DNA of 64,000 nucleotides, taken from assembly GCF_044647545.1 (NCBI RefSeq), contig NZ_CP172818.1, one strand, 5' to 3'. This stretch comes from Escherichia coli (GTDB lineage: Bacteria; Pseudomonadota; Gammaproteobacteria; Enterobacterales; Enterobacteriaceae). The position numbers are program-made. Shown piece after piece: positions 51,601 through 54,600 of the stretch. Position 1 is the stretch's first letter; the number at the start of each line of letters is the position of its first letter.

Positions 51601-54600
51601 AGGTCCGTATGGCGAAGAAGGGATGATTGTTCAGCAATTCCACCCGTTACCGAAATTCGGCGACAGCTATATGCTGATTGGTAGCTGGCTGGTGAACGAT
51701 CAACCTGCCGGAATTGGCATTCGTGAAGACCGTGCATTGATCACCCAGGATATGTCTCGGTTTTATCCGCATATTTTTGTTGAGTAAGCTATCCCCTTTT
51801 TTCTAACACCACAATACCCCCCCACCACAAAACAAAAAAAACAAAAAAAAAAAAAAAAAAAAAACAAAAAAAACAACCAAAAAAAAATAAACAAAACCAA
51901 AAAAACAAATCCCAATACCCGAGGCACTCGCCATCCGGTTTAAAAAAAAAAAAATTATTAACCTATCTGCACCGACAGCATACTTAAACTGCCCATTTCT
52001 ATACCATCGACCGGAATGGTAATTGGCTCCTGCCCATCCCACGCACCTAAGACATACAACAACGGCAGATAGTGCTCTGGCGTTGGGTTCGATAACGCGC
52101 CACCTTCATGGTCGAGATAATTCACCAGAGGATGTTGTTCCACCGGCCCTTGCCACGTCAGATTCGCTTTCACATACTCATTAAACGACGTCGCCCACGG
52201 ATACGGTGAACTATCACCGTGCCACTTCACTGTACGCAGGTTATGCACCACGTTGCCACTGGCGACCAACATTATCCCTTCATCACGCAGCGCCGCGAGT
52301 TTGCGCCCCATTTCGAAATGCCAGGCGGCAGGTTTGCTACTGTCGATACTCAACTGCACCATCGGGATATCGGCGTCAGGATACATCTTAATCAGTACGC
52401 CCCACGAGCCGTGGTCGAAGCCCCAGGCTTCTTTATCCAGCGTCACAGGGACCGGCGCTAACAGCTCAACCAGATGCTGTGCCAGCGCAGGTGAACCCGG
52501 AGCAGGATAATGCGTATCGTACAGCGCCTGCGGGAAGCCACCAAAGTCATGAATCGTGGGCGGCGTCTCCATCGCGGTCACTCCTGTTCCACGGGTAAAC
52601 CAGTGAGCCGAAACCACCACTATTGCTTGCGGGCGTGGCAATGTCATCCCCAACGTCTGCCAGCTGCGGGTATACAAATTATCTTCCAGCACGTTCATCG
52701 GACTACCGTGACCTAAAAACAATGCTGGCATACGTGTTGAAGACATGATGATATCCTTAACTAAAGGTGTCATTTTGATATCCTCACAATACGCTTGTTC
52801 GGCGGAGTAAGAACCCGGATAACAATGATGATGATCATCAGTTATTTTGACGATCTGCCTGAAGGTGAAGATTTATAAGGAGTTGTCGATGTCAGTACCT
52901 CTCATTCTGACCATACTGGCGGGGGCAGCCACGTTTATTGGCGCGTTTCTCGGCGTTCTCGGGCAAAAACCCTCGAACCGCTTACTGGCGTTTTCGCTAG
53001 GATTTGCGGCGGGGATCATGTTGCTCATCTCATTAATGGAAATGCTTCCTGCCGCATTAGCCGCCGAAGGAATGTCACCTGTGTTGGGTTATGGAATGTT
53101 TATCTTCGGTCTGCTTGGCTATTTTGGCCTGGACCGCATGTTGCCACATGCGCATCCGCAGGATTTAATGCAAAAATCGGTGCAGCCGTTGCCAAAATCG
53201 ATCAAGCGCACAGCCATTCTGCTCACTCTCGGCATCAGTCTGCATAACTTCCCGGAAGGGATTGCCACCTTTGTCACGGCGAGCAGCAACCTAGAGCTGG
53301 GCTTTGGCATCGCACTGGCCGTTGCGTTACACAATATTCCTGAAGGTCTGGCGGTTGCAGGCCCGGTTTACGCGGCAACGGGGTCTAAACGCACCGCGAT
53401 TCTTTGGGCGGGGATTTCTGGACTGGCAGAAATTCTTGGTGGTGTGCTGGCGTGGTTAATCCTCGGTAGCATGATTTCCCCGGTGGTCATGGCGGCAATC
53501 ATGGCGGCGGTTGCAGGAATTATGGTAGCGCTCTCGGTTGATGAATTAATGCCGCTCGCCAAAGAGATTGACCCTAATAATAACCCCAGCTATGGCGTAC
53601 TATGTGGAATGTCAGTGATGGGATTCAGTTTAGTGCTGCTACAAACGGCGGGAATTGGTTAAAAGCAACATCAGAAGTTGTCCAGCGCATGGACAACTTC
53701 TGCCAGCTTCACTAAAGCCTTATTCTACCTTTTCGGCTGTCTCTTCTCTCGTACTGTTTAAGTATTTGTTCCGCGCTTCAAGCAGTGCGTCTCTGTCCTG
53801 GCGAAACGCCCGACAATAACGTTTCAAATGCAGGAAATAACCCACAACAACAAGAGCAATCAATACAATCCAGTACCAGGCGATAAACATCCTTTTACCC
53901 TTAATATTTAACAATACTAAACATTTAGCGCATAAATTTCACATATCCTTTTTCGGATATATTCATATGGTCGCATAATAACGGAACAATTATATGATTT
54001 TGATCATAATGAAAAAGAATGCCTGATATTAATGAAATTTTCTCATAGAAAGAGAAGCGGAATTAACATCTTGCATAGCAGGGAAAAATAAAAACCGAAG
54101 CCTGCTACAACTTCGGTTTCTTGATTAAGGCAGTAAATTAAGCAGCGGTTTTCAGCTGGCTTTACGCTCATGTGCCTGACGGTATGCCACCAGGTCTTCA
54201 ATAGTCACGAGCGCCATATTGTGTTTATTGGCAAACTCAATGCACTCTGGTGCACGCGCCATCGTGCCATCGTCATTAGTCAGCTCACACAGCACACCAG
54301 CCGGTTTAAAGCCTGCCAGCGTCATTAGATCAATAGTTGCTTCAGTATGGCCGCCACGCGTCAGTACTCCACCTGCCTGCGCGCGAAGTGGGAAAACGTG
54401 GCCCGGGCGATTCAGATCAGAAGGTTTTGCGTCATCGGCAATCGCTGCGCGAACGGTCGTAATACGGTCAGCGGCAGAAACACCGGTAGTCACACCTTCA
54501 GCCGCTTCAATGGTCACGGTAAAACCGGTGCCATAGGCGCTGGTGTTATTTTCTACCATCATTGGCAGATCGAGTTGTTTACGGCGATCTTCAGTAATGC

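Follow-up and report, generated by a model that had tools for sequence, protein, structure and literature searches.

Within the window, meaning the whole 64,000-nt stretch of Escherichia coli DNA analyzed here (assembly GCF_044647545.1, contig NZ_CP172818.1), the convergent genes ygiC and ygiD are separated by a 170-nt sequence, block C (51788-51957), which makes up the entire spacer and which a preliminary description of this DNA had suspected to be filler. ORF calls placed the limits of the spacer exactly where that description had put them, with the ygiC stop ending at 51787 and the minus-strand ygiD stop beginning at 51958. The features of the locus are as follows.

50627..51787, plus strand: ygiC CDS, glutathionylspermidine synthase family; an intact ORF of 386 aa and the left anchor of block C
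51788..51911, no strand: A/C-rich low-complexity filler of ~124 nt, with no template detectable by alignment
51912..51942, no strand: damaged copy of the 37-bp spacer found in genomes without an island at this site, recognized by alignment to natural spacers
51942..51954, no strand: A13 run following the hairpin remnant and preceding the ygiD stop, absent from all four of the natural spacers aligned (4/4)
51958..52773, minus strand: ygiD ORF, 4,5-DOPA dioxygenase extradiol; an intact gene that anchors block C on the right

Position 51942 is shared by two of these features, being both the first base of the A13 run and the last aligned base of the hairpin remnant.

Block C consists of 100 A, 43 C, 20 T, and 7 G bases; its longest G-free run extends over 132 nt (51789-51920), and its longest run made up of A and C only extends over 72 nt (51816-51887). 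The homopolymers are C7 at 51818-51824, the composite A8-C-A22-C-A8 at 51834-51873, A9 at 51879-51887, and A13 at 51942-51954, and the composite run confirms the reported stretch of more than 20 A bases broken by single C bases. An A-rich array with periods of 1, 14, and 32 was found at 51827-51909 by TRF. In the controls, which comprised 52 kb of the window without its junk blocks and 88 kb of the closest reference, homopolymers reached at most 9 nt and A/C-only runs at most 23 nt. The low complexity of block C is far beyond chance.

The earlier statement that the whole spacer is of low complexity held for most of it but not for the last ~45 nt, in which 51912-51942 is a damaged natural hairpin. 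The local alignment of 51912-51942 to the natural spacer scored 25, compared with 9.1 +/- 1.8 (maximum, 17) for 500 shuffled sequences; the loop and the right arm (ggcactcgCCATCCGG) are preserved, and the left arm, CCGGATGG in the natural spacer, has become CCCGA-GG. The crippled hairpin at 51918-51938 has predicted folding energies of -8.3 and -11.8 kcal/mol (z, -2.3 and -1.3). The earlier claim that the spacer lacks a hairpin terminator or REP-like structure was thereby upheld in essence: there were no terminator-like sites in the block C region, and the fold is far weaker than the -22 and -24 kcal/mol of the natural spacer, but the remnant itself had gone unnoticed. The sole inverted repeats found in block C were pairings of A runs with T runs, and its other repeats reflected self-similarity of the A runs; the G+C-rich inverted repeat that marks a REP/BIME element and that, together with a T run, marks an intrinsic terminator was not found in it. 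An RNA or regulatory role for block C was rejected, there being no Rfam match, no promoter-like site, and no significant fold.

The filler at 51788-51911 did not align above shuffled controls either to the natural spacer or to the left end of the island that occupies this site in other genomes. A derail-and-retry origin, proposed from the occurrence of CAATACCC at both 51812 and 51913, was dropped, as the left part scored 7.5 against the natural spacer and its shuffles scored 8.9 +/- 1.5. Derivation of the left end by base drop-out from the left end of the island was likewise rejected (13.5; shuffles, 16.0 +/- 1.9), and the similarity of the right end of block C to the right end of the island was not significant (15; shuffles, 14 +/- 1.9). 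An engineered deletion scar such as FRT was also rejected, no such sequence being visible in block C.

Natural alleles and the flanks of block C

A 1-kb query across the site was searched against 5,426 complete E. coli genomes (RefSeq). The site was matched in 5,425 of them, and block C itself was matched in none, so that the comparison with reference ygiC-ygiD spacers bore out the initial suspicion. A 36-mer from block C was absent from genome_contigs and metagenome_contigs in an exact scan, and AATACCCGAGGCACTCGCCATCCGGTTTAAAAAAAA can serve as a search string for block C in E. coli assemblies.

The island-less class, with a 37-bp spacer between ygiC and ygiD, accounted for 3,916 of the 5,425 matched genomes (about 72%), and the spacer length was unchanged in every island-less row sampled across the whole ranking (236 query nt aligned to 236 record nt). 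The natural spacer is a hairpin, CCGGATGG-CAYTCG-CCATCCGG, with a predicted folding energy of -22 kcal/mol on the plus strand and -24 kcal/mol on the minus strand (z about -6). Among the divergent lineages aligned (E300010, the K-12 derivative J53, O157:H7, and CH4799), the stem arms were invariant and there was one C/T difference in the loop. These natural spacers resemble block C in their place between the two stops and share with it the loop and right arm; they differ from it in length (37 bp versus 170 bp, with ~124 nt of filler and the A13 run added in block C), in the perfect inverted repeat CCGGATGG/CCATCCGG, whose left arm is damaged and whose fold is weaker in block C, and in their flanks, which are of the island-less haplotype, whereas the window flanks are of the island-bearing haplotype and at most 98.9% identical to island-less genomes.

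In the rest of the matching genomes, the query aligned in two separate parts. The one such genome inspected, FDAARGOS_497, carries a 3,688-bp island between ygiC and ygiD (L002, 21045-24732) with three CDS, encoding an aryl-sulfate sulfotransferase (assT), a DsbA/DsbL-type thiol:disulfide interchange protein, and DsbI, and the other top-matching genomes appear from their alignments to carry the assT-dsbL-dsbI island too. The flanks of this allele are 100% as in the window up to the island boundaries, and the island of ~3.7 kb with its three CDS is entirely missing from the window. Specifically, window 43714-51787 (8,074 bp) is 100.000% identical to FDAARGOS_497 up to and including the ygiC stop, and window 51955-55408 (3,454 bp) is 100.000% identical to FDAARGOS_497 positions 24733-28186, resuming 3 nt before the ygiD stop; window 51788-51954 thus stands in place of the island. 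Eleven further genomes tied with FDAARGOS_497 in score, with matches spanning the same extra ~10.8 kb (FDAARGOS_497 alone was inspected directly).

The best island-less genomes were only 98.7 to 98.9% identical to the window flanks (10 mismatches in 834 bp), no relative with identical flanks was found among the 3,916 island-less complete genomes, and the combination of island-bearing flanks with the island-less hairpin at ygiC-ygiD occurred in no complete genome. Judged by these comparisons, the ygiC-ygiD junction is chimeric, joining an island-bearing flank haplotype to a remnant of the island-less spacer. Two further sites in the window have the same construction. At the ygiQ-ftsP site (32290-32348), a 7.7-kb island with GntR, mannitol dehydrogenase, and TRAP transporter genes is missing, and at the ygiN-parE site (43661-43713), a 7.3-kb island with siderophore ABC and TonB receptor genes is missing. 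The spacers at both sites are clean and of the natural island-less type, and their flanks show at most one difference near the junction from FDAARGOS_497, which has both islands, but are only 98.1 to 99.2% identical to any island-less genome. The island-less allele, which is the one present in the window, is the commoner arrangement at each of the three sites.

One explanation in terms of natural history is a strain-private allele, in which recombination with an island-less strain removed the assT island and slippage then lengthened the spacer into an A/C tract. Homopolymer tracts can expand by slippage, ygiC and ygiD are both intact, and the hairpin remnant shows descent from a natural spacer. 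At three loci, however, the breakpoints would then have had to fall no more than a few bases from the island boundaries, with flanks that are still 100% of the island-bearing type, and three recombination events each with both breakpoints so placed are not a credible natural history. In addition, there was no intermediate in the 5,426 genomes, slippage would have had no A or C run to begin from in the natural spacer, homopolymers in clean sequence do not exceed 9 nt, and the other junk blocks of the window destroy genes and are accompanied by mismatches spread evenly over codon positions. We consider a private allele of this kind very improbable. Still harder to credit is its most specific form, a physical FDAARGOS_497-like isolate with a precise loss of assT-dsbL-dsbI and a private 133-bp poly(A/C) expansion disabling the bidirectional ygiC/ygiD hairpin; if true, so long and unstable a homopolymeric tract would be without precedent in an E. 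coli chromosome.

A phase-variable contingency tract that tunes termination or read-through between ygiC and ygiD would also be a biological explanation. Long homopolymers are a hallmark of contingency loci in other bacteria; block C shares long mononucleotide runs with those of Neisseria, Haemophilus, and Campylobacter, and the tract does replace a bidirectional hairpin. Contingency loci, however, lie in promoters or 5' coding sequence, consist of a pure unit, and vary in length, whereas block C lies in a 3' convergent spacer between two stop codons with no promoter-like site, is an irregular A/C mixture rather than a pure repeat unit, and has no E. coli homologue: the E. coli genomes examined had no tract of any length there, and the sampled rows did not vary in length. 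The sister junk blocks described below argue instead for a common nonbiological cause, and this explanation can be given next to no credence.

Other lesions in the window

The differences between the window and the reference were clustered and not spread along the window. Two of the clusters, blocks A and B, are lesions of the same kind as the ygiC-ygiD spacer, which makes the name block C an apt one.

8975-10110 (core, 9031-9180): block A, affecting an IS3-family element in the yghU-hybG interval; runs of T12, C31, A8, and C12
29006-30018: block B, ~1 kb of A-rich junk; runs of A31, A26, A21, A19, and others

In block A, ~514 bp of the IS3 copy are replaced by 106 bp of junk, errors rising until the sequence collapses, and 100% identity is back at the hybG stop. 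Downstream of yqhH, block B takes the place of two hypothetical genes that are strain-specific (L003, 31322-32778), and it ends exactly at the ygiQ stop. Both blocks are entered by progressive single-base drop-out (of G and T in block B) and left abruptly at the stop codon of a core gene.

The first 650 nt of the window are collinear with the reference and ~68% identical to it, with at most 67 to 70% identity to any of the 5,426 genomes. Mismatches in this segment were distributed over the three codon positions as 36/32/31% and 20/26/26%, and the changes cut a yghQ-like lipopolysaccharide (LPS) biosynthesis ORF from 449 to 371 aa. Since the mismatches are even across codon positions and the yghQ-like ORF is truncated, the segment represents noise and not divergence, and a natural divergent allele, for which the best identity was likewise too low, was rejected.

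Smaller lesions were found at two other places. At the 3' end of ubiK (55408-55412), a 64-bp loss removes the natural stop and gives the protein an aberrant C terminus; the loss occurred in no complete E. coli genome, and the aberrant UbiK protein was not on record in indexed public assemblies (exact protein match, 153 billion gene positions). Between ygiZ and mdaB, the segment 42418-42435 has four single-base drop-outs of G or T (42427-42435), and its best match in the 5,426 genomes was 97.6%.

Over all of the transition zones, the deleted reference bases were 51 G, 30 T, 15 C, and 14 A, and the most frequent substitutions were G>A (28), T>C (17), T>A (16), and G>C (14). The error spectrum is a strand-specific drift toward A and C on the strand as written, whatever the orientation of the genes. 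Blocks A and B are not A/C-rich (C/T, and A/G and A/T, respectively), and the A/C drift is therefore not uniform. The lesions lie at structurally polymorphic or intergenic sites, that is, island sites, an IS copy, strain-specific genes, and variable 3' ends, and the structurally invariant sequence in the window is a perfect copy.

Production of block C

Taken together with its sister lesions, block C is, with a probability of about 95%, not a real feature but an artefact of sequence production, and not a genetic element. The missing islands, truncated genes, and odd spacers in the window reflect the production of the sequence and not an organism. The value of the finding is in quality control only: block C and its sister lesions are not to be read as biology, and neither the "missing terminator" nor the apparent absence of three islands nor the truncation of ubiK and the yghQ-like gene warrants any inference. 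Caution applies to the window as a whole.

As to the producing process, whose identity we infer, block C was probably made when a generative or neural sequence model collapsed into low complexity. Such a generator would have copied a FDAARGOS_497-like chromosome exactly as far as the ygiC stop and there would have met a branch point between the 37-bp hairpin spacer and the 3.7-kb assT-dsbL-dsbI island, neither of which it followed. It would then have emitted the ~124 nt of A/C filler, a faulty copy of the island-less spacer, and 13 A residues, and would have returned to its template 3 nt short of the ygiD stop. The producer may have been an autoregressive or other neural generator, for example, a genomic language model with E. 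coli largely memorized, and such a model would be expected to reproduce invariant segments exactly, to favor the majority structural allele at branch points, and to collapse where prediction is uncertain.

The pattern in the window is consistent with collapse, with recurrent runs of up to 31 nt, compared with at most 9 nt in clean and reference sequence, in at least three blocks that none of the collections searched contained. Indirect pointers to a generator are the confinement of the lesions to structurally variable or intergenic DNA, the island-less allele at all three island sites, and an aberrant UbiK that is not on record in indexed public assemblies. For generation by Evo 2, a collapse into low complexity with long runs of one base has been documented (bioRxiv 10.64898/2026.01.17.700093), and the output described there is like the window in being unnaturally rich in homopolymers, which recur along one sequence and occur in no natural genome. 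The Evo 2 collapses differ, however, in being multi-kilobase and terminal and in setting in after about 300 to 400 kb, whereas the episodes in the window span 0.1 to 1 kb and are followed by recovery to 100% identity; that collapse in Evo 2 takes hundreds of kilobases to appear and that the episodes here are short and recoverable is a point against a generator. Two further points stand against it. A stretch of 8 to 20 kb at 100% identity to one lineage requires near-verbatim memorization or conditioning; published models were trained on about one genome per species, and such verbatim copying is not expected of them. Furthermore, positions 1-650 remain in register at about 65% identity, which looks more like noisy copying of a template than like free generation.

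The main rival explanation is a read-based assembly or consensus artefact, which we regard as possible but on the unlikely side. In this case, an FDAARGOS_497-like isolate or a strain mixture would have been merged with island-less sequence through a reference-guided consensus, the collapse of a mixed-strain graph, or a neural polisher working on conflicting pile-ups, and spacers without read support would have been taken from another template or garbled into low-complexity calls. Such a process would account for island-less spacers inside island-bearing flanks at three sites and for a perfect unique core together with a noisy IS3 copy and noisy accessory genes, and the base drop-out at the edges of the lesions looks like what consensus calling gives when bases and gaps are mixed in a pile-up. 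The absence of the source from the 5,426 RefSeq complete genomes would fit a draft that was rejected or never deposited. The insertion of 20- to 31-nt homopolymers is left unexplained by such a process; standard assemblers and polishers are not known to expand a 37-bp spacer with 124 nt of poly(A/C) or with homopolymers of 31 nt. A literature search for basecaller-type low-complexity artefacts yielded nothing directly usable. No current platform has a consensus error anywhere near the codon-even substitution of 35%, the 3.7-kb assT island is unique sequence that should assemble normally, and the aberrant UbiK is absent from indexed public assemblies. Moreover, the IS3 copy and the accessory genes are placed as in FDAARGOS_497, which means that a simple island-less reference was not the scaffold.

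If the window is the output of a generative model, it would offer a clear view of the sites at which a generator fails, with invariant E. coli sequence reproduced verbatim, the commoner island-less allele chosen at three of three sites, and collapse in mobile or strain-specific DNA.

Minor differences from the reference

Several small differences from the reference lie outside the blocks described above. At 58550-58590, near the ibs toxin/hldE spacer, one G is lost and GGGG is inserted, and at 20903, in the yghA-exbD intergenic region, the 5 bp ATCAT are lost. Isolated single-base differences from FDAARGOS_497 occur at 5728, 8359, 33579, and 42418, and at all four positions the window has T where the reference has C.
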